Origin: an uncultured Elusimicrobia bacterium
Lineage (GTDB): Bacteria; Elusimicrobiota; Elusimicrobia; JACQPE01
Reading direction: 5' to 3'
NCBI GenBank assembly: GCA_964357255.1
Contig: CAYHKQ010000042.1
Coordinates: 1 to 22,317 of the forward strand
DNA: 22,317 nucleotides
Position numbers and translations under genes: made by a program
Shown: positions 5,449 through 22,316 of the stretch, piece after piece
How the letters are laid out: each line of letters begins with the position of its first letter
How positions within the stretch are numbered: the stretch's first letter is position 1
The notes under the pieces: model-generated
Told to the model about the DNA's origin: nothing
What the model saw: the letters and a program-made list of their open reading frames with translations, nothing else
Database searches by the model: none

Positions 5449-5476
5449 GGTTGTAAAGTTGGGGGGAGGTTGTAAA
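5449..5476. promoter_or_regulatory. Direct repeat GGTTGTAAA occurring twice (5449..5457 and 5468..5476, 19 bp apart) in the divergent intergenic region. Inverted half-copies ACAACC (5401..5406) and TTACAA (5495..5500) also occur, and a TACAAT -10-like hexamer lies at 5496..5501. Candidate transcription-factor operator array.
   Basis: Read directly from the sequence. The region lies between divergently oriented gene starts, about 5226 or 5364 on the minus strand and 5514 on the plus strand. Confidence 0.3.
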
Positions 5477-11423: not shown

Positions 11424-12674
11424 TTGAAGATTATTCTAGCGCCAGCGTTTGTGGTCATGCTTATTGTTCCGGCTATGGCTGAGGAGACTGTTTTCATTTC
11501 GACGGGATCCCTTACATTGAAGGAAGCCTTGGCCGAGGCCCGCGAGCGCAGTCCTGAAATTTTAGCCGCCCGTAAATTTTGGGAGGCGCTTGCGAGCAGG
11601 CCGGTTGGGGCGGCCGCGCCGGAGAATCCCCGTCTGGATATTGAAAGAATGTACGCGAGCGGCGGAAGGAACATTATAACAGGGGCCGAGGAAAAAAATT
11701 TTATGCTCAGCCAGGAGATTCCTTTCCCGGCAAAACTTCATTTGAGAAAGCGGGTGGCTTTAAAAGCCGCGGCCATGGCGGAGCAAGGGTATTTGGCCAA
11801 GATCAGGGACGTGCTGGCCCGGGTCCGTTCGATCTATGCCATGCTTTATCTTTCACACAAAAATTTGGAATTGTTTAACGAGAATATTGAGTTGTTGCGC
11901 CGTTTTGCCAAGGTGGCTGAGTCAAAATACGCGGCCGGCCGCGCGAGCCAATCGGACGTCCTTAAGGCCCACGTGGAATTGAGCAAGATGCTTAATATGC
12001 TCGTGGTTGTTAATCAGGACAAGGAGGCGGCCGGGTTCATGCTCAACGCGCTTTTGGGCAGGGCCCCGGAGTCGGCATTAGGGGTTCCGGTTGATCTTGA
12101 TTCAAAAAAATTGGACTACAGTCTCGACGAGCTTGAGCGCCAAGCCTTGCAATCGCGTCCCCAACTGCTCGAAGCGGCGCTCGGCGTGGAGCGGGCCGCC
12201 GGCGCGCTTTCATTGGCCAGATCGGAATTTTTTCCTGATTTCATGCTTCAATACCGCCAGCGCCGCGATTCTATGCGTGGAAGTTCTCAGGACGCGATGA
12301 TTGGATTTACGATCCCTCTTTGGTTTTGGAAGCCCGCGGCCATGGCGGCCGAGGCCAAGTCGGAGTTGCAAATGTTTCAGGCCCAACTGCAGGCCACCAG
12401 GCTCATGACCCTGTCCGAGGTCCGCGCTTCCTTTGTCCGGGCCCGGACAAGCCAGCGCCTGATTGAACTTTATCGCAACGGCGTCTTGGCGCAGGCCGAG
12501 GGGGCGCTTAAAGTGGTTGAGGCGAGTTATCAGGCCGATAAGGCGAGTTTTCTGGACTTGGTGGACGGACAGCGCGCATTTTTGAATTTTAAGCTCGAAT
12601 ACTACCAATACATCGCCGAGTACGAACAACGCCTCGCGGAGCTAGAGCGCGCTGTTGGAAAGGAGTTGCTATGA
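11424..12674 (+). CDS. cusC: Outer-membrane efflux protein of 416 aa (TolC-like outer-membrane factor, CusC/CzcC type). TTG start 4 nt after a GGAGG Shine-Dalgarno sequence, followed by a signal peptide.
   Basis: Signal peptide MKIILAPAFVVMLIVPAMA. Two repeated alpha-helical coiled-coil/beta segments typical of OEP-family proteins. Its stop overlaps the next gene's ATG (ATGA at 12671..12674). Confidence 0.8.
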   Translation: MKIILAPAFVVMLIVPAMAEETVFISTGSLTLKEALAEARERSPEILAARKFWEALASRPVGAAAPENPRLDIERMYASGGRNIITGAEEKNFMLSQEIPFPAKLHLRKRVALKAAAMAEQGYLAKIRDVLARVRSIYAMLYLSHKNLELFNENIELLRRFAKVAESKYAAGRASQSDVLKAHVELSKMLNMLVVVNQDKEAAGFMLNALLGRAPESALGVPVDLDSKKLDYSLDELERQALQSRPQLLEAALGVERAAGALSLARSEFFPDFMLQYRQRRDSMRGSSQDAMIGFTIPLWFWKPAAMAAEAKSELQMFQAQLQATRLMTLSEVRASFVRARTSQRLIELYRNGVLAQAEGALKVVEASYQADKASFLDLVDGQRAFLNFKLEYYQYIAEYEQRLAELERAVGKELL

Positions 12675-14059
12675 GAAAAAATAAACTTGTGATTTTAATC
12701 CTTGCGGTTTTTATCTTTGGAGCCGGCGGCCTGGTTGTGCGGTTTCGCCGTGGAGCAAGTCATGGCGCTGGAGTCGCCCCAGAGGCGGTCCGTTATTATT
12801 GTCCGATGCATCCTACTTATACCTCGGATCGCCCCGGCGCTTGTCCGATTTGCAACATGTCTCTTGTGCCCATGGAGACGCCGGATGCTTCCGGGGCCGC
12901 GGCTCAGAATCCTGCCGGTTCCGGAAAAAAAGTCTGCCTGCTTCACAACTGCAACATGGCCAATTGCCCCATGGAGTTAGAACTCAAACCAGGCCAAAAG
13001 GTGACATGTCCCGTATGCGGGACTCATGTAGAGGAGGCGCAAGAGCTTGCTCAAGGAAAAATTCTCTATTACCGTCATCCCGTGCGGCCGGAGCTAACGT
13101 CCCCGTCGCTCAAAAAGGATGAGATGGGAATGGATTACGTGCCTGTCTATGCCGAGAAACAAGACGTTCGGGTTCCGGTCGGGGGCCAAGCCGGCGTGAC
13201 TTTGACGGCGGAGCGCCGCCGGCTCATTGGCATGGAATCGCAGGCATTGGTAAGACGTGATTTAAAATTTACGGTCAGGGCCAGCGGCCGCGTGGCTTAT
13301 GATCCTGATCTTTACAACGCCATTGCGGAATATCGGGAGGCTGTGCGGACTAAAGAACAGGTCAAGGAGAATTCCTGGCCCGATGTCCAGGATCGTTCCC
13401 AAGCTTTAGTGAGGGCTTCCCTTTTGAGATTGAGACAGTCGGGTTTATCTGAGTCTCAAATTGAAGATATTGCCCGGAGCACGGGGGCGCAGTCAACTAA
13501 TCTCCTTTTGGGAGGTTCCGAAGAAAGCGTCTGGGTCTATGCCCAGATTTATGAGTATGAGATTGGCTTTGTCAAATCCGGCCAGAGAGCCGAAATTACA
13601 ACCCCGGCTTATCGGGGACGGAAATTTTACGGCACGGTTAAAGCGGTGGACCCTATCCTTTCCGCGGAAACCAGGTCTCTTAAAGTCCGTATCGAGGTTC
13701 CCAATCCCGAGGGGCTCTTGAAGCTGGAAATGTATGTCAACGCGGAGATCCGCGTGGACATTGGATTTAAGCTTGCCCTTCCCGAGGAGGCGCTTATGGA
13801 GACGGGCGAGCGTCAACTCGTTTTTATTGACCTTGGCCAGGGGCGCATTGAGCCAAGAGAGGTGCGCATCGGCCAAGAGGCGAAGGGTTATTATGAGGTC
13901 ATCTCCGGCATCCGCGAAGGCGAGAGGGTCGTGACATCGGCCAATTTCCTCATTGACTCCGAGTCGAAACTGAAGGCCGCCATTTCAACCTCGAAGGACA
14001 AGGCCAAGGGCAAGGGCGACTCCCAACCCGCCGATTCTTTTTCGGAACACAGGCATTGA
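12671..14059 (+). CDS. cusB: Efflux RND periplasmic adaptor (membrane-fusion protein) of the CusB/SilB type, 462 aa. N-terminal TM anchor. It has a heavy-metal-binding motif YYCPMHPTYTSDRPGACPICNMSL, an additional Cys cluster CLLHNCNMANCPMELELKPGQKVTCPVCGTHV, and the degenerate YYRHPVRP...KDEMGMDYVPVY motif. The C-terminus is His-rich (SEHRH).
   Basis: The CPMHP...CPICxM motif is characteristic of Cu(I)/Ag(I) adaptor N-domains. Beta-barrel/lipoyl-like segments follow (VKAVDPILSAETRSLKVRIEVPNPEGLLKLEMYVNAEI). Translational coupling with cusC. Confidence 0.85.
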   Translation: MRKNKLVILILAVFIFGAGGLVVRFRRGASHGAGVAPEAVRYYCPMHPTYTSDRPGACPICNMSLVPMETPDASGAAAQNPAGSGKKVCLLHNCNMANCPMELELKPGQKVTCPVCGTHVEEAQELAQGKILYYRHPVRPELTSPSLKKDEMGMDYVPVYAEKQDVRVPVGGQAGVTLTAERRRLIGMESQALVRRDLKFTVRASGRVAYDPDLYNAIAEYREAVRTKEQVKENSWPDVQDRSQALVRASLLRLRQSGLSESQIEDIARSTGAQSTNLLLGGSEESVWVYAQIYEYEIGFVKSGQRAEITTPAYRGRKFYGTVKAVDPILSAETRSLKVRIEVPNPEGLLKLEMYVNAEIRVDIGFKLALPEEALMETGERQLVFIDLGQGRIEPREVRIGQEAKGYYEVISGIREGERVVTSANFLIDSESKLKAAISTSKDKAKGKGDSQPADSFSEHRH

Positions 14060-14066
14060 GGCTTTT

Positions 14067-17000
14067 ATGGTCAGAAAACTTATAGCTTGGTCGGCGCACA
14101 ACAAGTTCCTGGTGATGGCCTTGACGGCCGTTTCCATGGTGGCGGGCTGGTATTGCATGAAGAACATTCGGCTCGACGCGATTCCGGACCTCTCGGACAC
14201 GCAGGTCATCGTCTATTCCCGATGGGATCGCTCTCCCGACATCATCGAGGACCAGGTCACTTATCCGATTATCACCGCTCTCCTGGGAGCTCCGAAGGTC
14301 AAAGCTGTGCGCGGTTTTTCCGACTTCGGCTTCTCCTACGTCTACGTCATTTTCGAGGATGGCGCCGACATCTACTGGGCGCGTTCGCGCGTGCTGGAGT
14401 ACCTGAGCAAAATTCTGCCGCAGATGCCCGATGGTGTGCGCACCGAGCTTGGCCCTGACGCTACGGGCGTGGGCTGGGTTTACCAATACGCCCTTGTCGA
14501 CAAGACGGGCCGGCACAGCCTCGCCGACTTGAGATCCTTCCAGGATTGGACGTTACGCTATTACTTGCAGTCAGTTCCGGGAGTGGCCGAGATCGCTTCT
14601 ATCGGAGGCTTCCAGAAACAATATCAGGTGCAGGTTGACCCCAATGCGCTGGTCGCCTATCGCATCCCGCTCGGCCGAGTCGTTGACGCCATCCGCGACG
14701 GCAATAACGACGTTGGCGGACGGCTTGTCGAGTTCGCGGGCACGGAATACATGATCCGCGGCCGCGGCTACGCTAAGTCGGTCGAAGACATCGAGCAGAT
14801 CGTCGTCGGCCGCGACACGCGCGGCACGCCTGTCCTGGTCAAGAGCATAGCCAAGGTGACCTTGGGCCCTGATATCCGGCGTGGCATCGCTGATCTTGAC
14901 GGCGAGGGCGATGTTGTCGGAGGCATCGTGGTGATGCGCCATGGCGAGAACGCCCTCAACGTCATCAAAAGGGTCAAGGCGCGCCTCGATGAGGTCGGGC
15001 CCTCGTTGCCGGAAGGAGTCGAGATCGTCAAGACCTACGATCGCTCCGAGCTCATCGAAGGCGCCATTGCCACCTTAAAGGATGAGCTTTTTATGCAGAT
15101 GTTGTTGGTCAGCCTTGTCATCCTTGTTTTTCTCTGGCACATTCCCTCCGCGATTGTGCCGATCGTGACGATTCCGATTTCGACGGTGCTGGCCTTTATT
15201 CCTTTGTACTTCATGGGCGTGAGCGCCAACATCATGTCTATCTCAGGGATCATGCTGTCCATCGGCGTGCTCGTGGACGGCTCTATGGTGGAGGTGGAGA
15301 ATGCTTATAAGAAGCTACAACTTTGGGTCGCGGGAGGGCGCAAAGGCGATTTTCACGCCGTGCGCCTGGAGGCGTTGCAGGAGGTCGGGCCCGCGGTGTT
15401 TTACTCTCTAATGGTCGTGGCCGTCGCTTTCTTTCCGATTTTCGCGCTCGTGGACCAGGAGGGCAGGCTCTTTAAGCCGTTGGCCTACACAAAGAACCTG
15501 ACAATGCTCCTGGCGGCGTTTCTCGCCCTGACCCTGGATCCGGCTGTGCGCATGATGTTCTCGCGCATGAACTATTTTGTGTTCAAGCCGAATTGGCTCG
15601 CGTGGACCATCAACCAGATTACCGTCGGCCGCTATTACGCTGAGGAAAAGCACCCGATCAGCAAGGGTTTGTACCGCCTCTACGACCCCGTCTGCCGCTG
15701 GGTGTTGGAGCGGCCGTGGAAGGTGATTGGGGCCGCCGTACTCATCACCCTGGCAACCGTGCCGATTTACCTCAAGCTGGGTTCTGAGTTCATGCCTCCG
15801 CTCAACGAGGGCACGATTTTGTACATGCCGACGACCTTGCCGGGGATATCGGTCACTCAGGCCGCGGACTTGCTTAAGAAGCAGGATGAGATCCTTAAAA
15901 GCTTTCCGGAGGTGGAGCGGGTTTTCGGTAAGGCGGGCCGCGCCCAGACCTCGACCGACCCGGCCCCTTTTTCAATGATGGAGACCACCGTAATCCTCAA
16001 GCCAATGGACCAGTGGAGGAAAAAAGAACGGTGGTATTCCCTGTTCCCGGAGTTCTTCCAGAAGCCATTGCGGCGTGTCTGGTGGGACAGGCTCACCTGG
16101 GACGAACTGGTCGCCGAGATGGACAAGCGCATGAGGTTCCCGGGCGTGACCAACGCCTGGACCATGCCGATTAAGGCGCGCATTGATATGCTGACTACCG
16201 GAGTGCGCACACCCATTGGTATTAAGGTCTACGGGGCGGACCTAGCGCAGATCGAGGCGGTGGGGCAGGAGATCGAAGCGGTCCTTCGCGAGGTTCCGGG
16301 GACGCGCTCCGTCTATGCCGAGCGCACTGCGGGCGGCTATTTCGTTGACTTCCGGCTCAAGCGCGAACAGTTGGCGCGCTATGGTTTATCCGTCAAGGAG
16401 GTCGAGATGGTCATCATGTCAGCCATTGGCGGTGAAACAGTCACGACCACCATCGAAGGCCGAGGGCGCTATAGCGTCAACGTCCGCTACCCGCGCGAGC
16501 TCCGGGACAATCTCCCCAAGCTCAAGCGGGTGCTCGTGGCCACAATGGACGGCGCGCAGATTCCCCTGGCTCAGTTGGCCGACATCGAATTGACGATGGG
16601 CCCGGCGATGATCCGCAACGAGAATGGGATGCTGGCCGGTTACGTCTACGTGGACGTTGCCGGACGCGACATTGGAGGCTATGTCGAGGAAGCCAAGAAG
16701 AAGGTCGCTTCGGTGGTGGACCTTCCTGTCGGCTACGCCATTGGGTGGAGCGGCCAGTATGAAAACATGGTGCGCGTGCGCGAGCGCATGACCCTGGTCC
16801 TTCCTTTGACCCTGGTGATCATCGTCCTGCTCATGTACATGAACACCAAGTCCTGGATCAAGACGGGGATCGTAATGCTGGCGGTGCCATTTTCGCTCAT
16901 CGGCGCCTTCTGGGGGTTCTATCTCCTCGACTACAACCTCTCGGTGGCGGCCTGGGTGGGCATGATCGCGCTCATGGGCCTTGACGCTGAGACGGGCACC

Positions 17001-17357
17001 TTCATGTTGCTCTACCTCGATCTGGCCTACGCCGACGCGGTGCGCGAGGGCCGAATGCGCAACTACGAAGACTTAAAGGAGGCGGTGATGCACGGCGCGG
17101 TCCGGCGCATCCGCCCTAAGATGATGACGGTGTTCACCGATTTTCTCGGCCTGATGCCGATCATGTGGTCGCTCGGCACGGGGGCGGATCTCATGAAGCG
17201 CATTGCCGCGCCCATCATTTTTGGGCTGTTCACGAGTTTTGCGCTCGAGCTTGTGGTCTACCCGGCGATTTTTCTCCTCTGGAAGTGGCATGGCGATATG
17301 CGAAAGGGAACGGTGGACGTAAATCAACTTCCGGTCCCGGAGATTCGGGAGTATTGA
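14067..17357 (+). CDS. cusA: Heavy-metal efflux RND transporter of the CusA/CzcA family (HME-RND), 1,096 aa, with 12 TM helices.
   Basis: Length, TM pattern and conserved HME-RND blocks. The TM4 proton-relay block reads SIGVLVDGSMVEVEN (S-D-E). This matches the monovalent Cu/Ag type A-D-E more closely than the divalent D-D-E type. Confidence 0.93.
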   Translation: MVRKLIAWSAHNKFLVMALTAVSMVAGWYCMKNIRLDAIPDLSDTQVIVYSRWDRSPDIIEDQVTYPIITALLGAPKVKAVRGFSDFGFSYVYVIFEDGADIYWARSRVLEYLSKILPQMPDGVRTELGPDATGVGWVYQYALVDKTGRHSLADLRSFQDWTLRYYLQSVPGVAEIASIGGFQKQYQVQVDPNALVAYRIPLGRVVDAIRDGNNDVGGRLVEFAGTEYMIRGRGYAKSVEDIEQIVVGRDTRGTPVLVKSIAKVTLGPDIRRGIADLDGEGDVVGGIVVMRHGENALNVIKRVKARLDEVGPSLPEGVEIVKTYDRSELIEGAIATLKDELFMQMLLVSLVILVFLWHIPSAIVPIVTIPISTVLAFIPLYFMGVSANIMSISGIMLSIGVLVDGSMVEVENAYKKLQLWVAGGRKGDFHAVRLEALQEVGPAVFYSLMVVAVAFFPIFALVDQEGRLFKPLAYTKNLTMLLAAFLALTLDPAVRMMFSRMNYFVFKPNWLAWTINQITVGRYYAEEKHPISKGLYRLYDPVCRWVLERPWKVIGAAVLITLATVPIYLKLGSEFMPPLNEGTILYMPTTLPGISVTQAADLLKKQDEILKSFPEVERVFGKAGRAQTSTDPAPFSMMETTVILKPMDQWRKKERWYSLFPEFFQKPLRRVWWDRLTWDELVAEMDKRMRFPGVTNAWTMPIKARIDMLTTGVRTPIGIKVYGADLAQIEAVGQEIEAVLREVPGTRSVYAERTAGGYFVDFRLKREQLARYGLSVKEVEMVIMSAIGGETVTTTIEGRGRYSVNVRYPRELRDNLPKLKRVLVATMDGAQIPLAQLADIELTMGPAMIRNENGMLAGYVYVDVAGRDIGGYVEEAKKKVASVVDLPVGYAIGWSGQYENMVRVRERMTLVLPLTLVIIVLLMYMNTKSWIKTGIVMLAVPFSLIGAFWGFYLLDYNLSVAAWVGMIALMGLDAETGTFMLLYLDLAYADAVREGRMRNYEDLKEAVMHGAVRRIRPKMMTVFTDFLGLMPIMWSLGTGADLMKRIAAPIIFGLFTSFALELVVYPAIFLLWKWHGDMRKGTVDVNQLPVPEIREY

Positions 17358-17375
17358 TCATCATGGAAATGATCT

Positions 17376-18263
17376 ATGCCTTTTAAATTTAAGCGCGAAG
17401 AGATCCGTAGGAGGAATCACCGTCGTCCTTGGCATCCACGCAACGCCGCTGTGATGCTTGCCTTGTTGAGCGCGGGGTTGGGGCAGGCTTTTGCTGAACA
17501 GGCGCATCATCAGGCCGGCGCCGCTACGGTGCGGGCGGGTCAGTGGATCGCTCAGCCCTGGGAGACAGGCGAGGAACGTTTGCGCTGGCGCATATTCGGT
17601 TCATATTTGTCCTCCCAATCCCGATTCGACGCGCTCGGCGATCGAGTGGCGCTTGAGAATAACGGACGTTATTCTAACTTTGGACTGAACGCCTTTTTGG
17701 AGTATGCGTTGAACCCGCGTTGGAGCATTGCCGGACTGGCTCCGTTGCAATGGTCCAGGCTTTCGGATGACTTGAGCCGTGAGCGTTGGGTCAATGTCGG
17801 AGATACGTATGGCTGGGTCCGCCGCTCTATTGAAGGGAATGCGCGCTGGAGCGCCGGCGCGCTGGCTGGAATCAAGATTCCGGGAAATTACCGGCCGGGC
17901 GCCGCTACGGGGGACCGTCAAACGGACATGGAGGCTCAAGGGTTTTTGGGGCACGGTCTTGGCCGCGGCAGTTTCGCATCTTTAGGTTCCGGATATAGGG
18001 TCCGTTTCGGGAGTCCATCTGATGAAATTTTTTTTAACGCGCAGTTCGGCTGGAACCCCGGGAACGGATGGCTTCTCGTGCCGGCCGCCGCCGGCGCCCT
18101 GGGCGTCGGAGGGGGCGTTCCTAAAGACTTCCTTAATGCCGGGGTTACTATTTTTCGTTCCCTGCGGGGCCCATGGAGACTTCTAGGCTCCTATAATCGT
18201 GTTATTGCGGGCAAAAATACGGTGAGCGCCGGCGTCTGGGCGCTAGGAGTTTCATATCAATAG
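17376..18263 (+). CDS. Putative outer-membrane beta-barrel protein of 295 aa from the first ATG. The signal peptide is more plausible from Met27 at 17454 (MLALLSAGLGQAFA|EQAHH). It is Gly-rich with an alternating hydrophobic pattern. Family undetermined.
   Basis: Track ORF directly downstream of cusA with an 18-nt gap. The amphipathic beta-strand periodicity and the aromatic-rich C-terminal strand (VWALGVSYQ) suggest an outer-membrane barrel. An AGGAGG-like sequence at 17409..17414 lies between the two candidate starts. Confidence 0.5.
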   Translation: MPFKFKREEIRRRNHRRPWHPRNAAVMLALLSAGLGQAFAEQAHHQAGAATVRAGQWIAQPWETGEERLRWRIFGSYLSSQSRFDALGDRVALENNGRYSNFGLNAFLEYALNPRWSIAGLAPLQWSRLSDDLSRERWVNVGDTYGWVRRSIEGNARWSAGALAGIKIPGNYRPGAATGDRQTDMEAQGFLGHGLGRGSFASLGSGYRVRFGSPSDEIFFNAQFGWNPGNGWLLVPAAAGALGVGGGVPKDFLNAGVTIFRSLRGPWRLLGSYNRVIAGKNTVSAGVWALGVSYQ

Positions 18264-18297: not shown

Positions 18298-19836
18298 ATG
18301 GCGGCTATGGCCATAGTCCTTTGGATAGCGCCAAGTGTCCTGATTTTTGCCCAGGAACACGCAGGGTTCCGCCATGGAGAGTCCGCAATGGCCAAGGTTC
18401 CTTCGCAACATTCTGACGATGAAATTGCGGCCAAAGAGTTTGGCTTGAATCTTGAAACCTGGAGCGGACTCACGCGCATGGGCCATGCCGTGGCAACCTG
18501 GAGGATGAAACCCATCCCGGAAAGGCGAATCATTCTTTTCGATTTTTCCTATCGTCGCTCGTTGGCCTTAAATAAAGCGCAAGAGTTATTGAAAGCCGGA
18601 GAAGATGCCGATTGCGAAGAGATCCGCTTTTTAAGGATTTATTTGGGAGATGGGGCCATGCGCCCGATACTTCTGAAACACGAAAAAAGCGAAGCCCATC
18701 TGGCGCATGAACACCCCGGCAAACCTCCGCTGGCCGGGGAAGGACAACGTCCCGCAGAGCCGGTAGTTAAGGATATTAAGCTCTGCCGCATCAACTGGGA
18801 CGGCCCAAAGGAGCCGACAATTCCTTCTCCTGTTCCGCTTCCTGGGGGAGGATTCGATTCTCACGAAGGCCATCGCGGTCATTCTTCGGGAGGCATCACT
18901 CGCGATCATGGGAATTCCAGGCACGAAGACCATCGTAGAGGTTCGGGAGGAGGTGGCCCATCGCAGGGTCATGAAAATTCTCATCGCCAAGGTTCCGCCG
19001 GCGGACCAGATGATGCTCGTCATGGCCCAGGCGCTTCTCGTTCTGAGGGCGCCCAGCATAACTCAAGCCACGGCCAATCTCTCAGCATCGCGCCTGCTAC
19101 GAGCGCCGGCGCTTCTCATGTTCACGCGGCTAAGGGGGGATCGAACGCGATGTCGAGTCCTCGGCATAACAGCGAGCCCGCTAGCCTTCATGGCGATCTG
19201 GCTCATCCCCAACCAGTTTATGGGCGCTCCTACGAAAGACCGGTTGCTGGTTTTTCAAAAAACCATGCCCATGTTCCATCGTTAATGAATTCTCCGGCTA
19301 AGGCCGGCCAAGAGGGAGATCATCGTTTGCATTCATCTTCTGATTACAGCGCTATTGTTGACCATGGAGTTCATCAAATATCGCATGAAGCAAGTTCGCC
19401 TCAAGGGAGTTTCCAGCGCCACGCGCGTCATTCTCAGGCAACTCAAGACCCTGGCCTTCCTCACCATGCCGTGGCTCATGGGACGCCAGATTCAAATTTT
19501 CCAAGCGCTGTCCATGAAAGCGTTTTTGGCCATCGTGCCGTAGATGACCATCAGGAACGTCACAAAAGCCTTGCGGCAAGGCAAACTAATGGCGCCCCTG
19601 CAGATATTGCCGCAAGCCACGTTCATCACAATGATCACTCAACCCACCAAAAGCAAGACATTGAACGCCCTGCCAAGGAAAACTTATCGCCAGGCTCGGA
19701 TGTTGATCAAAAGGGAAATATCCCTCCGTGGCCCTGGAAGGGGGCTGTCTTGTTTGCCTCTGTAGCCTATGCCGGAGCGCTTTGGAAGCGGCGTAAAGTA
19801 GGGCCGCAATTCAGAAATTCGCAAAGGAGGAAATGA
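18298..19836 (+). CDS. Histidine-rich protein of 512 aa. It has a hydrophobic N-terminal signal-like segment (AMAIVLWIAPSVLIFA|QE) and a roughly 150-aa globular N-domain. A roughly 300-aa Gly/Ser/His-rich low-complexity region follows. By my hand count it holds about 37 His, with no Cys and few Met. The C-terminal TM anchor (GAVLFASVAYAGALW) carries a basic tail (KRRK). Putative periplasmic, membrane-tethered metal-binding or metal-buffering protein.
   Basis: Track ORF with degenerate H-x-x-S-x-H / GH / HxH repeats. An alternative start at 18388 (ATG 7 nt after GGAGAG) would remove the signal segment. No recognisable enzyme motif. Confidence 0.7.
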   Translation: MAAMAIVLWIAPSVLIFAQEHAGFRHGESAMAKVPSQHSDDEIAAKEFGLNLETWSGLTRMGHAVATWRMKPIPERRIILFDFSYRRSLALNKAQELLKAGEDADCEEIRFLRIYLGDGAMRPILLKHEKSEAHLAHEHPGKPPLAGEGQRPAEPVVKDIKLCRINWDGPKEPTIPSPVPLPGGGFDSHEGHRGHSSGGITRDHGNSRHEDHRRGSGGGGPSQGHENSHRQGSAGGPDDARHGPGASRSEGAQHNSSHGQSLSIAPATSAGASHVHAAKGGSNAMSSPRHNSEPASLHGDLAHPQPVYGRSYERPVAGFSKNHAHVPSLMNSPAKAGQEGDHRLHSSSDYSAIVDHGVHQISHEASSPQGSFQRHARHSQATQDPGLPHHAVAHGTPDSNFPSAVHESVFGHRAVDDHQERHKSLAARQTNGAPADIAASHVHHNDHSTHQKQDIERPAKENLSPGSDVDQKGNIPPWPWKGAVLFASVAYAGALWKRRKVGPQFRNSQRRK

Positions 19837-19839
19837 CCT

Positions 19840-20214
19840 ATGTTCCAACTCATGAAATCAAAAACACTGCTTAGCGCAATGTTGTTAACGATGGCTCTGG
19901 GATTGGCGGCGATGGCCGCTAACGACTCATACAAGAAAAAGCCCGGCCATCACCCCGCATGCCCCATGAAAATAGAAGGGGCGGAAGTCCGCGTGGATAA
20001 TATTGAATCCGGCGTGGTGGTTCATATAACAGCCGAGGATCCGGCTGTCGTCAAAAACATTCAGGATACGGCTTCCCGAATGGTTCAACATCATTCCCAG
20101 AAAAAGGGAGGGGCTAAAAAGGAAATTTATTCCTGCCCCATGAATGACTACTCCGGATCCCAGACCAAAGATGGCCGTTGCCCTAAATGCGGCATGAATC
20201 TTGAGAAAAAGTAA
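19840..20214 (+). CDS. Small secreted protein of 124 aa with a standalone heavy-metal-binding domain. Signal peptide, N-terminal HHPACPM, and a C-terminal YSCPMNDYSGSQTKDGRCPKCGMNL (the same Y-x-CPM...G-x-CP-x-CGM-x-L motif as the CusB N-domain). Candidate periplasmic Cu(I)/Ag(I) metallochaperone.
   Basis: Motif identity with the adaptor metal-binding motif in 12671..14059. Signal peptide MFQLMKSKTLLSAMLLTMALGLAAMAA. It lies 4 nt after the His-rich gene. Confidence 0.7.
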   Translation: MFQLMKSKTLLSAMLLTMALGLAAMAANDSYKKKPGHHPACPMKIEGAEVRVDNIESGVVVHITAEDPAVVKNIQDTASRMVQHHSQKKGGAKKEIYSCPMNDYSGSQTKDGRCPKCGMNLEKK

Positions 20215-20257: not shown

Positions 20258-20449
20258 ATGACGATGAAAAAATGGAATAGACGCGGAGAAGCGAGCATAG
20301 GCATAATTCTCATCATGGGGGCCATGATGCTGGGCATGTTCTTGTTGCATAAGTTTAAAGGGAGTCGCTCAAGCGATCATTCTGATGGCAAGTCGGGCGC
20401 CGCCCAGGAGCCTGCGGAGCATAAGTCGAGCGAAGGGGGACACCATTAA
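20258..20449 (+). CDS. Small single-pass membrane protein of 63 aa with a charged, Ser/His-containing C-terminal tail ending HH.
   Basis: Strong Shine-Dalgarno sequence AAAGGAG about 6 nt upstream of the ATG. One TM helix (SIGIILIMGAMMLGMFLL). Last gene on this strand before a convergent gene. Confidence 0.45.
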   Translation: MTMKKWNRRGEASIGIILIMGAMMLGMFLLHKFKGSRSSDHSDGKSGAAQEPAEHKSSEGGHH

Positions 20450-20526: not shown

Positions 20527-21471
20527 CTATACGGATATGCCCCAGATGCTTTTGACGCCGAGGCCGATGACGTAGGTGACGCCTACGGCTGTGGCGAGGA
20601 TGACAAAATTGACCGCAATTCGGCGCTTGATGTTCATTCCGGAAAGGAACGCGAGGATGTAGGAGATCAGCGCCACCATGCAAGCCGAACTGGCCAAAGA
20701 CGCGAGGACGTTTTTGGCTCCCAAGAGCACCGGCATCACAGGGATTATCGCGCCGACAAGATAGCTCGCCCCGACTATCGCTCCCGTGGCAAGCGGGTTT
20801 TCGCCGTCGTCTTGAGGTTTCGCGTCGGGATCGAGGAAACGCTCTTTGGCGGCATCTATTCTTTTGACCTCGCGTTCCGAAGTGGCCGCGACAAAGGCTC
20901 CGGCCGCCATGGAAAACGCTCCGGCCGCCGCCACCGTCGAGCTCGCGATTAAAATTGCGGACGGTTCGTTGAAAGCCGCGAAAAATCCGCTCACAGCCCC
21001 GAGGATTTCTACTAAGCCGTCGTTTAAGCCGAGGAATATGCTTCTGATTCGTTCGGGATTAATTTTTCTTTGCGTTAACTGGGAGACGATTTGATCCTCG
21101 TGTTTGAGTTCGTCGGCAAGGATTTCTTTGACGGCTTCCCCAAGGGGGGCATTCTTGTTGGTTTCCCAGATGTCGAGGTACTTGCGGATTCCGTAAATTT
21201 CAATGGCTTCGAGAACCAAATGGATGCCGGTTGACCGGAACAATCGGCACGCCAAGACAAGAAGGCGCAGTTTGATGCGTTGCGGCATGTCCAGGTTTTT
21301 AACCTTGACGCCGGTAAAATTTTCCCAAAAGGCATGATGCTTTTGTTCGATCGGGATGAGTTCTTCGAGAATTTTGCGCGGCCCCGGGGCGCTGACCCTG
21401 GAGAGTTCTTTGTAGAGCGTCAGGTCGAACAGTTCGTCCGCGACGAGGCTATGGGCCAGTTTGGGATTCAT
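20527..21471 (-). CDS. mbfA: Ferritin-like (erythrin) - VIT1/CCC1 fusion protein of 314 aa. A membrane-bound ferritin-like Fe/Mn transporter of the MbfA type.
   Basis: The N-terminal four-helix ferritin-like region carries Glu/His ligand motifs (ADELFDLTLYKE...EQKHHAFWEN...LEAIEIYG...LADELKHED). The VIT1 signature is ERIRSIFLGLNDGLVEILGAVSGF, and a C-terminal TM bundle follows. The ATG overlaps the upstream gene's stop (ATGA at 21468..21471). Confidence 0.85.
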   Translation of the reverse strand: MNPKLAHSLVADELFDLTLYKELSRVSAPGPRKILEELIPIEQKHHAFWENFTGVKVKNLDMPQRIKLRLLVLACRLFRSTGIHLVLEAIEIYGIRKYLDIWETNKNAPLGEAVKEILADELKHEDQIVSQLTQRKINPERIRSIFLGLNDGLVEILGAVSGFFAAFNEPSAILIASSTVAAAGAFSMAAGAFVAATSEREVKRIDAAKERFLDPDAKPQDDGENPLATGAIVGASYLVGAIIPVMPVLLGAKNVLASLASSACMVALISYILAFLSGMNIKRRIAVNFVILATAVGVTYVIGLGVKSIWGISV

Positions 21472-22316
21472 GGGAAGTCCTGGGCGCGGATGCCTGGGTC
21501 GAGTTCCAATAGTGTGATCCCTTGCGCGTCCATAAATTCGGCGTTGACGCTTCCCTTCACGCCAATGACAATAAAGGCGAGGGGGTCTTGCTTGCGGCGG
21601 CCTTGGAGAAAGCGGATGAGATCGAGAAAATCACTGTCGCCCGTGGCCAGGGCAATGACGTCGAGCCGGCTGGAGCGCTCGAGCACGTCGAGCGCCATTG
21701 CGATATCAACATTGCAGGTATAACCGCCGTTCTTTCGCTTGTTGGCCTGCTTGCCCATAATCTCGTAATGCTTATCACGCAGTTTATTTTGCTCTGTTTT
21801 TGCGTCTTCTCTGAGGTAGGCGACGCGCATGGACACAAAAAAGTCTTTGTTGTGGGCGCTTATTTTTTGTTCCAAAGCCTCGGCGATATCAGTCGCGCTC
21901 TGAGCGCGCGCCGTCTTTTCCTGCAGGCAGAGCCGGATATTTTCAAAATCAACAAATAATCCGGCGCGTTTGAGCGAGGTGGCTTTTTGGGCCCTGCTCT
22001 TGAGGTTTTCAATTACAATCTCTTGCTCGCGGCATTGCAGGGACGCGGCGCCGAGTTTTTCGGCGGTTGCCTTGAGCTCCGCCTCGCATTTTTGGAACTC
22101 ATCGAGACGGTTGTCTTTTTTTCCTGAAAATTTTTCCAGTTTATTTTTCGTTTCTTGAAGCTCGCGATTGAGCCGGTCCATCTCGATGTGGGCCTTTTTG
22201 AGTTCCTCTCTTGTTTTTTTGAGCTGGTTTTGAGCGCGGCCGTTCTCTTGGGCGCCGCCATCGGGCTGTTTGTTCTCATGCGCAGGGGGTTGCGGCAGGG
22301 GCGGTTTGTCCGGCAT
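21468..22316 (-). CDS. NYN/LabA-like (DUF88) domain protein with a long N-terminal coiled-coil, at least 282 aa. Its start lies at or beyond the window edge. Putative RNase or RNA-binding protein.
   Basis: The NYN core reads AGLFVDFENIRL...YTCNVDIAMALDVLERSSRLDVIALATGDSDFLDLIRFL...AFIVIGVKGSVNAEFMDA. The coiled-coil is Lys/Glu-rich (ELKKAHIEMDRLNRELQETKNKLEKF). The first Met is at 22316, one base from the window end. Confidence 0.7.
   Translation of the reverse strand: MPDKPPLPQPPAHENKQPDGGAQENGRAQNQLKKTREELKKAHIEMDRLNRELQETKNKLEKFSGKKDNRLDEFQKCEAELKATAEKLGAASLQCREQEIVIENLKSRAQKATSLKRAGLFVDFENIRLCLQEKTARAQSATDIAEALEQKISAHNKDFFVSMRVAYLREDAKTEQNKLRDKHYEIMGKQANKRKNGGYTCNVDIAMALDVLERSSRLDVIALATGDSDFLDLIRFLQGRRKQDPLAFIVIGVKGSVNAEFMDAQGITLLELDPGIRAQDFP

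Follow-up and report, generated by a model that had tools for sequence, protein, structure and literature searches.

The stretch of DNA analysed here, referred to below as the window, is a contig of 22,317 nucleotides from an uncultured Elusimicrobia bacterium. Its forward strand carries a cluster of genes for a putative Cus-type efflux system and, near the end of this cluster, a small gene for a protein with a heavy metal-binding domain (HMBD) at its C-terminus. The genes and features are listed in the order of their positions.

11424..12674, + strand: OMF, CusC/TolC-like (Pfam OEP, E 1.8e-42)
12671..14059, + strand: CusB-like periplasmic adaptor (MFP), with Pfam HlyD_D23 and HMBD; its best PDB match is CusB
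12794..12871, + strand: HMBD of the adaptor, residues 42-67, YYCPMHPTYTSDRPGACPICNMSL (Pfam, 47 bits); proposed partner site
14067..17357, + strand: CusA-type HME-RND transporter (TIGR00914, 1021.6 bits for a cut-off of 701)
17376-18263, + strand: 295-aa ORF, between the RND gene and the His-rich ORF
18298-19836, + strand: 512-aa His-rich ORF, directly 5' of the small HMBD gene
19825..19830, + strand: Shine-Dalgarno sequence AGGAGG, 9 nt 5' of the ATG, read directly off the sequence
19840..20214, + strand: small HMBD gene, 124 aa, ATG start, stop included (ORF list, conserved columns common to homologs)
19840..19917, + strand: predicted Sec signal peptide, residues 1-26, MFQLMKSKTLLSAMLLTMALGLAAMA (hydropathy heuristic and A-x-A motif)
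19948..20109, + strand: 'CP module', residues 37-90, with Cys41-Pro42, a beta-hairpin (49-55/58-64) and a helix (68-90) (AF2, module profile)
20125..20211, + strand: HMBD (PF19335), residues 96-124 (Pfam, 34-sequence alignment, 8OVL alignment, AF2)
20258..20449, + strand: gene closing the + strand cluster, for a mini-protein of 63 aa that has one TM helix and a His-rich tail (ORF list)

The ATG of the small gene lies 3 nt past the stop of the His-rich ORF. The same protein is present at NCBI (P0001, from an Elusimicrobiota MAG) with a shorter start giving 111 aa, under the name "heavy metal-binding domain-containing protein". We favour the 124-aa start because it is preceded by the AGGAGG ribosome-binding site and because an equivalent N-terminus, charged n-region included, is present in all homologs. 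This N-terminus combines K6 and K8 with a hydrophobic core covering about residues 9-24 and ends with A-M-A at residues 24-26, after which cleavage is predicted from the A-x-A motif; inspection of the same segment revealed no lipobox Cys. The clear signal peptide announced by the first-pass annotation is therefore upheld as a Sec-type pattern, by hydropathy heuristic, that is common to the homologs, and the small protein looks exported and is probably periplasmic. Promoter and terminator scans around the small gene gave nothing exceeding shuffled background. Parts of the window recur with 99-100% identity in two other contigs, L117 and L119, which originate from groundwater sampled at Hainich (ERZ1292625).

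The RND transporter of the window reaches 964 bits with E. coli CusA as the reference and 465 bits with ZneA, and residues M573, M623 and M672 of the CusA periplasmic cleft (chain numbering offset of +7) all align with Met in it. With the three cleft methionines kept, the pump is predicted from its sequence to be a monovalent CusA-type Cu(I)/Ag(I) exporter. The position given to the adaptor, three genes upstream of the small gene, has to be corrected: it lies four genes upstream, with three genes (RND, 295-aa ORF and 512-aa His-rich ORF) in between. No two-component or other regulator is adjacent to the cluster in the window. The 63-aa mini-protein that follows the small gene has no match in Pfam; two other loci, L001 (65 aa) and L096 (62 aa), have an ORF of this type in a matching operon context.

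The adaptor HMBD matches the structure 8OVL (E 1.8e-4) and aligns weakly, at 15 bits, with the N-terminus of E. coli CusB, WYDPMYPNTRFDKPGKSPFMDMDLVP. In this alignment, CusB residues M49, M64 and M66 correspond to a Met, the second Cys of the CxxC and a Met of the HMBD, respectively; one flavobacterial CusB has independently been described as having a Cys at the position of M64 (PMC11213822). As a separate observation, the adaptor gene of L001 contains an in-frame TGA, the sole case among the 211 HMBD motifs in the loci examined, and the search for a selenocysteine SECIS-like hairpin at this TGA yielded none that is convincing (z -0.43).

The last 29 residues of the small protein, IYSCPMNDYSGSQTKDGRCPKCGMNLEKK, correspond to the HMBD. 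The Pfam model PF19335 matches residues 97-124 with 30.3 bits for a gathering score of 23.6 (E 4.2e-07), and the match spans profile positions 2-28 of 28. Since the score exceeds the gathering score, this is no chance match, and the Pfam search by which the first-pass annotation proposed to check its reading thus returned a significant result. AF2 models the domain with pLDDT values of 97-98. Candidate metal ligands in the sequence are C99, M101, D103, C114, C117 and M119. In the 34 proteins that combine one or several CP modules with a C-terminal HMBD, all of which are matched by the HMBD profile, C99, M101, G112, C114, C117 and M119 are invariant (34/34), and position 103 is Cys in 24/34 and Asp in 9/34, that is, Cys or Asp in 33/34. 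The conserved set C99, C/D103, C114 and C117 makes a Zn-type site possible besides the two methionines. A profile search with YHS/TRASH (PF04945) gave no match in the small protein; YHS is found in the relatives P0013, L026, L050 and L100, and HMBD and YHS are both counted among the TRASH-type domains in Pfam. When the profile of the small-protein family was compared with the PDB, weak matches (E 0.1-0.2) were obtained with 8OVL and 3RFU, which correspond to the N-terminal domain of L. pneumophila CopA. In the NMR structure 8OVL, this metal-binding domain (LpMBD) adopts a rubredoxin-knuckle mini-fold and binds Ag+/Cu+ via M44, C59 and M61; on superposition, its residues C42, C56, C59 and H45 take the places of the ligands in Zn-binding domains, and it resembles the Ag+-bound N-terminal metal-binding domain of SilB (PMC11970713).

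It had been claimed that the C-terminal 30 residues of the small protein repeat a signature of the adaptor. Both proteins do share the HMBD, whereas the peptide concerned is 29 residues long and the C-G-M said to be common to both is present in the small protein but reads C-N-M in the adaptor. The loop from CPM to CxxC is 12 residues long in the small protein versus 11 in the adaptor, and the small-protein HMBD belongs to a subtype, G[CD]YxGPxTxDG[RK]CPKCGM, that is conserved across phyla. We considered a recent duplication of the adaptor HMBD as the source of the small HMBD and rejected it, given the differences in loop length and flanking residues and the conservation across phyla of a subtype of its own.

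The stretch HHPACPM at residues 37-43 opens a separate conserved module of about 45 residues, with the consensus x-C-P-x-x-[IVM]-x-G-A-x-V-x-V-x-N-x-x-x-G-V-x-I-x-I-T-x-x-D-P-x-x-V-K-x-I-Q-x-x-A and AF2 pLDDT values of 94-97 for residues 41-80. No Pfam model scores above threshold for this CP module of the small protein. A profile built for it matches 741 representative clusters at E<=1e-3, with 134 of them reaching E<=1e-10. The module is present in 1-6 copies per protein, plus one protein of 2072 aa with 13 copies; about 35 of the top 150 profile matches carry a C-terminal HMBD, and one CP module protein (P0013) carries a terminal YHS domain. Among the proteins combining CP module and HMBD, C41 and P42 are each conserved in 33/34 and G47, G58 and Q75 are invariant (34/34), M43 is kept in 13/34, and H37 and H38 in 5/34 each. 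HHPACPM had been read as a second metal site: the stretch is indeed there, but it is no second copy of the HMBD and only its Cys41-Pro42 is conserved. We consider that this unannotated Cys-Pro module merits a family definition of its own.

The CP module shows some resemblance to TusA/SirA, in that its Cys-Pro is followed by G-x-x-[LIV]-x-[IV]-x-x-D-P-x-x-x-x-x-I. The small protein scores 15.9 bits with the TusA model (PF01206), for a gathering score of 28.6; sub-threshold matches covering the CPxP Cys are found in 17/34 family members, with P0099 alone exceeding the threshold, and hhalign against E. coli TusA gives a probability of 68.6%. The module differs from TusA/SirA in being only about 45 residues long, in lacking TusA strands 1, 3 and 4 and in its predicted secondary structure; it is not predicted to adopt the TusA-type alpha/beta sandwich of two layers, in which the Cys N-caps helix 1, and TusA structures were not recovered as its structural matches. 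The differing secondary-structure prediction and the lack of TusA structures among the matches lead us to treat the resemblance as unproven.

Loci for comparison were collected in two ways. The first set was retrieved via the small protein itself and therefore cannot reveal the absence of its gene. In this set, the small gene is located directly 3' of OMF-MFP(HMBD)-RND in L001, L003, L006, L008, L009, L017 and L026. Small HMBD proteins that have a signal-peptide-like N-terminus and are otherwise unrelated to the small protein lie less than about 100 nt from CusA-like genes in the proteobacterial locus L022 and, with the same placement, in the Bacteroidetes loci L024, L028, L034 and L060. In species-representative genomes, such proteins occur in 38/80 HMBD-bearing loci, and 10/38 are within 1 kb of a CusA-like gene. 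The second set consists of metagenome contigs fetched with the RND protein as query and is thus unbiased as to the small gene. We defined as close relatives those with an RND transporter 84-88% identical to that of the window and at least 3 kb of sequence downstream, and as distant relatives those with about 70% identity.

Among these RND-anchored contigs, the HMBD small gene is present in 4/7 close relatives (L096, L097, L098 and L111), directly 3' of OMF-MFP-RND in L097. The 7 kb that follow the RND gene contain no such gene in the contig sequences of L095, L099 and L109, three loci whose RND transporters are 84-87% identical to that of the window and whose OMF-MFP-RND operon is intact. The distant relatives yielded a single occurrence out of about seven, in L100, as an HMBD+YHS fusion; no HMBD small gene was found downstream of the pump on the contig of L104, nor within 7 kb on those of L101, L103, L105, L106 and L108. 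In L095, L097 and L098, the RND gene is immediately followed, instead or additionally, by genes for a lipoprotein of the YHS type and a membrane protein that is YHS-like. The first-pass annotation had named absence from relatives that keep the operon as an observation that would speak against its proposal, and such absence was found in part, three close relatives lacking the gene in the stretch covered and four having it. Since the small gene is missing from this stretch in 3/7 close relatives and in most distant ones, the pump does not seem to need it. The small gene appears to be an accessory, not an obligatory, part of the pump operon, and its patchy retention suggests that the product is not a core component but a helper that can be dispensed with, or a buffer. 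Small secreted HMBD/YHS proteins, the modular class to which the small protein belongs, recur at the tail of cus-like operons of Elusimicrobia, although not of all of them.

Co-occurrence with the His-rich gene, which had been put forward as a further check, was not observed in the relatives' loci. Only the N-terminal ~140 residues of the 512-aa His-rich ORF have homologs, in L003 and L023, where they are encoded upstream of the OMF gene; the full-length gene is found elsewhere only in the near-identical contig L117. Contexts of paralogs of the small protein were taken from precomputed gene calls, and small-protein neighbours from match-anchored ORF extraction. Paralogs of about 180-220 aa, most of them with two CP modules, adjoin genes for a Crp-family regulator, hisS and aspS, and other paralogs of the family have neighbourhoods that show no relation to cus.

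How RND pumps are supplied with Cu(I)/Ag(I) in the periplasm is known almost exclusively from enterobacterial CusF/SilF, and many cus-type operons lack CusF. None of the scanned ORFs of the window matches the Pfam model CusF_Ec. A tblastn search with E. coli CusF (an approximate query sequence) found no match in the window; the same search picks up CusF-like ORFs in the proteobacterial locus L070. CusF was not found in the related Elusimicrobia loci examined either. The AF2 model of the small protein consists of a beta-hairpin and helix followed by the presumed knuckle domain and is not an OB-fold. The statement that the protein is evolutionarily unrelated to CusF thus stands, for sequence as well as for predicted fold. 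Some CusA-bearing genomes likewise have no CusF (PMC11213822), and the N-terminus of CusB is known as the site to which CusF passes Cu(I)/Ag(I) (PMC10407283).

We propose that the small protein is an exported periplasmic helper that captures Cu(I)/Ag(I) for exchange with the pump via the adaptor HMBD, a reading that we consider to have about an even chance of being correct. The mature protein would be soluble and periplasmic, with about 98 residues after cleavage forming two small modules, and its gene would share the transcript of a CusCBA-type operon without CusF, at whose tail it lies. The HMBD, presumably of the rubredoxin-knuckle type, would by homology with the LpCopA domain and SilB/CusB hold Cu(I) or Ag(I) between three sulfurs, those of M101, C117 and M119; C99, C114 and D103 could supply a fourth ligand or serve in a Zn-like tetrahedral site. 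The Cys-Pro/beta-hairpin/helix module would probably contribute another thiolate site or else a surface for dimerisation or docking. Once metal has been captured in the periplasm, the most economical route for its exchange with the pump would be ligand exchange with the homologous N-terminal HMBD of the adaptor, in a chaperone/target pair of the same fold like CopZ and the HMA domain of CopA. The small protein may therefore play a CusF-like role with no homology to CusF. We purely infer that metal would pass from it to the adaptor, and its metal specificity is deduced from the type of pump. The proposed exchange role is weakened by the existence of paralogs outside cus contexts and by the fit of C/D103, together with C99, C114 and C117, to structural Zn(II). 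We also count against it that Cys ligands may oxidise in the periplasm.

The same observations can be accommodated by other explanations. The small protein could be a periplasmic metal buffer, like CopK, PcoE/SilE or CueP, that hands nothing to the pump and owes its place in the operon to co-regulation. We judge this rather unlikely, even though close relatives that retain the pump can do without the gene, some members of the family are not encoded near an RND pump, the variable copy numbers of CP module and HMBD/YHS point to capacity rather than specific docking, and SilE does not interact with SilF or SilB in the sil system (PMC10407283). A single HMBD would indeed provide a low binding capacity, the tight position right after cusA recurs across phyla, and the fold is presumably the same as that of the adaptor's own metal site, which favours exchange. 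It is less probable still that the metal-loaded protein is a regulator or sensor that binds the adaptor or CusA to switch the pump on, or that signals to a regulator: the adaptor already has an HMBD of its own, no two-component or other regulator gene adjoins the cluster in the window, and the small gene is absent in close relatives. This explanation draws on the characterised HMBDs (the LpCopA domain and the SilB N-terminal domain), which are proposed to be sensors and not delivery sites (PMC11970713), and on the switch model discussed for CusB (PMC10407283).

Finally, Cu/Ag may not be the primary business of the small protein at all, its HMBD being a structural Zn-ribbon and its Cys-Pro module a TusA-type Cys carrier or an envelope thiol-redox module. 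Conservation of the four-ligand set C99, C/D103, C114 and C117, the fold that LpMBD has in common with Zn-binding domains (PMC11970713), and the hhalign result and sub-threshold TusA matches in half of the family (17/34) agree with this. However, the TusA score of the small protein itself is below the gathering score, both Met of the Cu(I) triad are invariant in 34/34 proteins, the gene stands in a Cu/Ag pump context, and the CP module is fused to YHS/HMBD in relatives; we hold this explanation to be the most improbable of all. A periplasmic helper exchanging Cu(I)/Ag(I) with the adaptor HMBD is the reading we prefer. Its generalisation, a CusF-independent route from HMBD protein to adaptor HMBD in Elusimicrobia and apparently in some Bacteroidetes and Proteobacteria, with the CP unit as a widespread and hitherto undescribed metal-handling repeat, is put forward tentatively and seems to us possible but somewhat doubtful. 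If true, it would explain how diderm bacteria devoid of CusF feed or switch their pumps, would provide a simple two-protein system (small HMBD protein and adaptor HMBD) for periplasmic metal exchange between domains of the same fold, and would give a function to hundreds of proteins labelled "heavy metal-binding domain-containing" or "hypothetical".

The HMBD family is already known in Pfam and the protein is already named after this domain at NCBI. Our searches of the literature retrieved no paper on stand-alone periplasmic HMBD proteins, and the only use of PF19335 in the papers found to cite it concerns a ferredoxin-fold MXCXXC protein. A stand-alone exported HMBD, its recurrent placement beside CusA genes and the fusion of an HMBD to an unannotated CP repeat module were not found described in the searchable literature. 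The finding is a modest one, since the domain is in Pfam, the NCBI name exists and not every such pump operon has kept the gene.

A known system comparable in role would be CusF/SilF, likewise a small exported protein of cus-type operons, whose transfer of metal to the adaptor N-terminus (PMC10407283) is the role proposed for the small protein. CusF differs in being an OB-fold beta-barrel with a Met2-His-Trp site, and the small protein has no sequence similarity to it. The N-terminal domain of LpCopA shares with the small protein the arrangement C-P-M ... C-P-x-C-G-M, its M44/C59/M61 corresponding to M101/C117/M119 and its C42/C56 to C99/C114. [quoted passage not shown] CusB of E. coli (M21/M36/M38, mature numbering) and SilB of C. 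metallidurans are periplasmic and contain a homologous stretch, with the three-sulfur Cu(I)/Ag(I) site of the Cus/Sil pump that the predicted site of the small protein resembles. Their site lies within the adaptor and is made of three Met, whereas the small protein is free-standing, has a mixture of Cys and Met and carries an extra N-terminal module. A parallel for the proposed partnership is provided by CopZ/Atx1 and the HMA domain of CopA, where a soluble chaperone shares both fold and ligand motif with the metal-binding domain of the transporter, although that pair has a ferredoxin-like HMA fold, works in the cytoplasm and serves another class of transporter.

The small secreted HMBD protein and the CusB-like adaptor encoded upstream contribute the following features to the window:

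19948-20109, + strand: N-terminal Cys-Pro/beta-hairpin/helix module (CP module), with relatives among the homologous proteins P0007-P0154
12935-13021, + strand: second Cys-rich stretch of the CusB-like adaptor, residues 89-117, sequence CLLHNCNMANCPMELELKPGQKVTCPVCG

No Pfam model exists for the CP module, and its family is large (741 clusters), with 1 to 13 tandem copies per protein. The module is often Cys-rich, and in some proteins it is fused to HMBD or YHS domains. It merits a separate family definition. A paralog of about 180-220 aa, with an HMBD and, in most copies, two CP modules, is syntenic in many Elusimicrobiales, where it adjoins a Crp/Fnr-type regulator, hisS and aspS (homologous loci L011, L013-L016, L018-L021, L090 and L093). 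At L015 this paralog is also preceded by an ArsR-like gene and by a permease that, judged by eye, reads as ArsP_1-like. An ArsP_1+HMA permease gene lies just downstream of the small HMBD gene itself in L003 and L006.

Residues 89-117 of the adaptor, for which Pfam reports no HMBD match, read as a second, degenerate HMBD (CPM, 11 residues, CPVCG-T). This stretch is conserved in the adaptor (L001:5292-6665) of an orthologous Elusimicrobiota operon, that of L001. The L001 adaptor gene contains a single in-frame TGA near position 5472, which in the CxxC motif of the HMBD aligns exactly with the second Cys (GACPICNMSL in the window, GDCPI*NMKL in L001). The pairing of Cys with TGA at a metal ligand is a classic signature of candidate selenocysteine, and the L001 codon is such a candidate; a sequencing error or a pseudogene would explain it just as well. 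A search 3' of the TGA found no convincing SECIS-like hairpin (z -0.43), and the L001 case is the only one among 211 HMBD motifs in the loci examined.

Beyond these two genes, the cluster and its borders include the following:

14067-17357, + strand: RND protein
17376-18263, + strand: ORF of 295 aa, signal-peptide-like at its N-terminus and with GVSYQ at its C-terminus
18298-19836, + strand: 512-aa His-rich protein, hydrophobic at its N-terminus and with a hydrophobic anchor at the C-terminal end
20258-20449, + strand: 63-aa ORF whose product has a single TM helix (GIILIMGAMMLGMFLL) and a tail rich in His
20527-21471 and 21468-22316, - strand: genes convergent on the cluster, for a VIT1/CCC1-type transporter and an NYN-domain protein

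The 295-aa ORF, which matches neither Pfam nor NCBIfam models, is possibly an outer-membrane beta-barrel; a homolog in L118 (46% identical) also follows the RND gene. Homologs of the 512-aa protein are limited to residues ~26-167 and are located upstream of the OMF gene in both cases (L003:1833-2147 and L023:9038-9469), and its long His/Ser/Gly-rich region is without a match in the loci searched. The 63-aa ORF has no Pfam match. Mini-proteins of the same type are encoded downstream of the small HMBD gene in L001 (65 aa) and ~400 nt 3' of the RND gene in L096 (62 aa).

Other small genes were observed in relatives. Directly 3' of the RND gene, the close relatives L095, L097 and L098 encode a lipoprotein of ~91 aa with a YHS-like CPVSG...YF motif, followed by a membrane protein of ~86 aa with a Cys-less YHS-like domain:

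L095:10307-10864: YHS-like lipoprotein and membrane protein pair
L097:7146-7683: the same pair
L098:10307-10850: the same pair

A coiled-coil protein of ~100 aa, His-rich at both ends, adjoins the small HMBD gene in L097 and L001.

The housekeeping genes upstream of the cluster in the window, for aspartokinase and homoserine dehydrogenase, point to a chromosomal rather than a mobile context. Of the convergent products, the Fe/Mn transporter has an N-terminal extension and the NYN-domain protein a coiled coil.

The RND protein of the window differs from E. coli CusA by insertions in two places, around residues 497-520 and 653-674, and its TM4 motif is SIGVLVDGSMVEVEN, whereas that of E. coli CusA is AVGAMVDAAIVMIEN.
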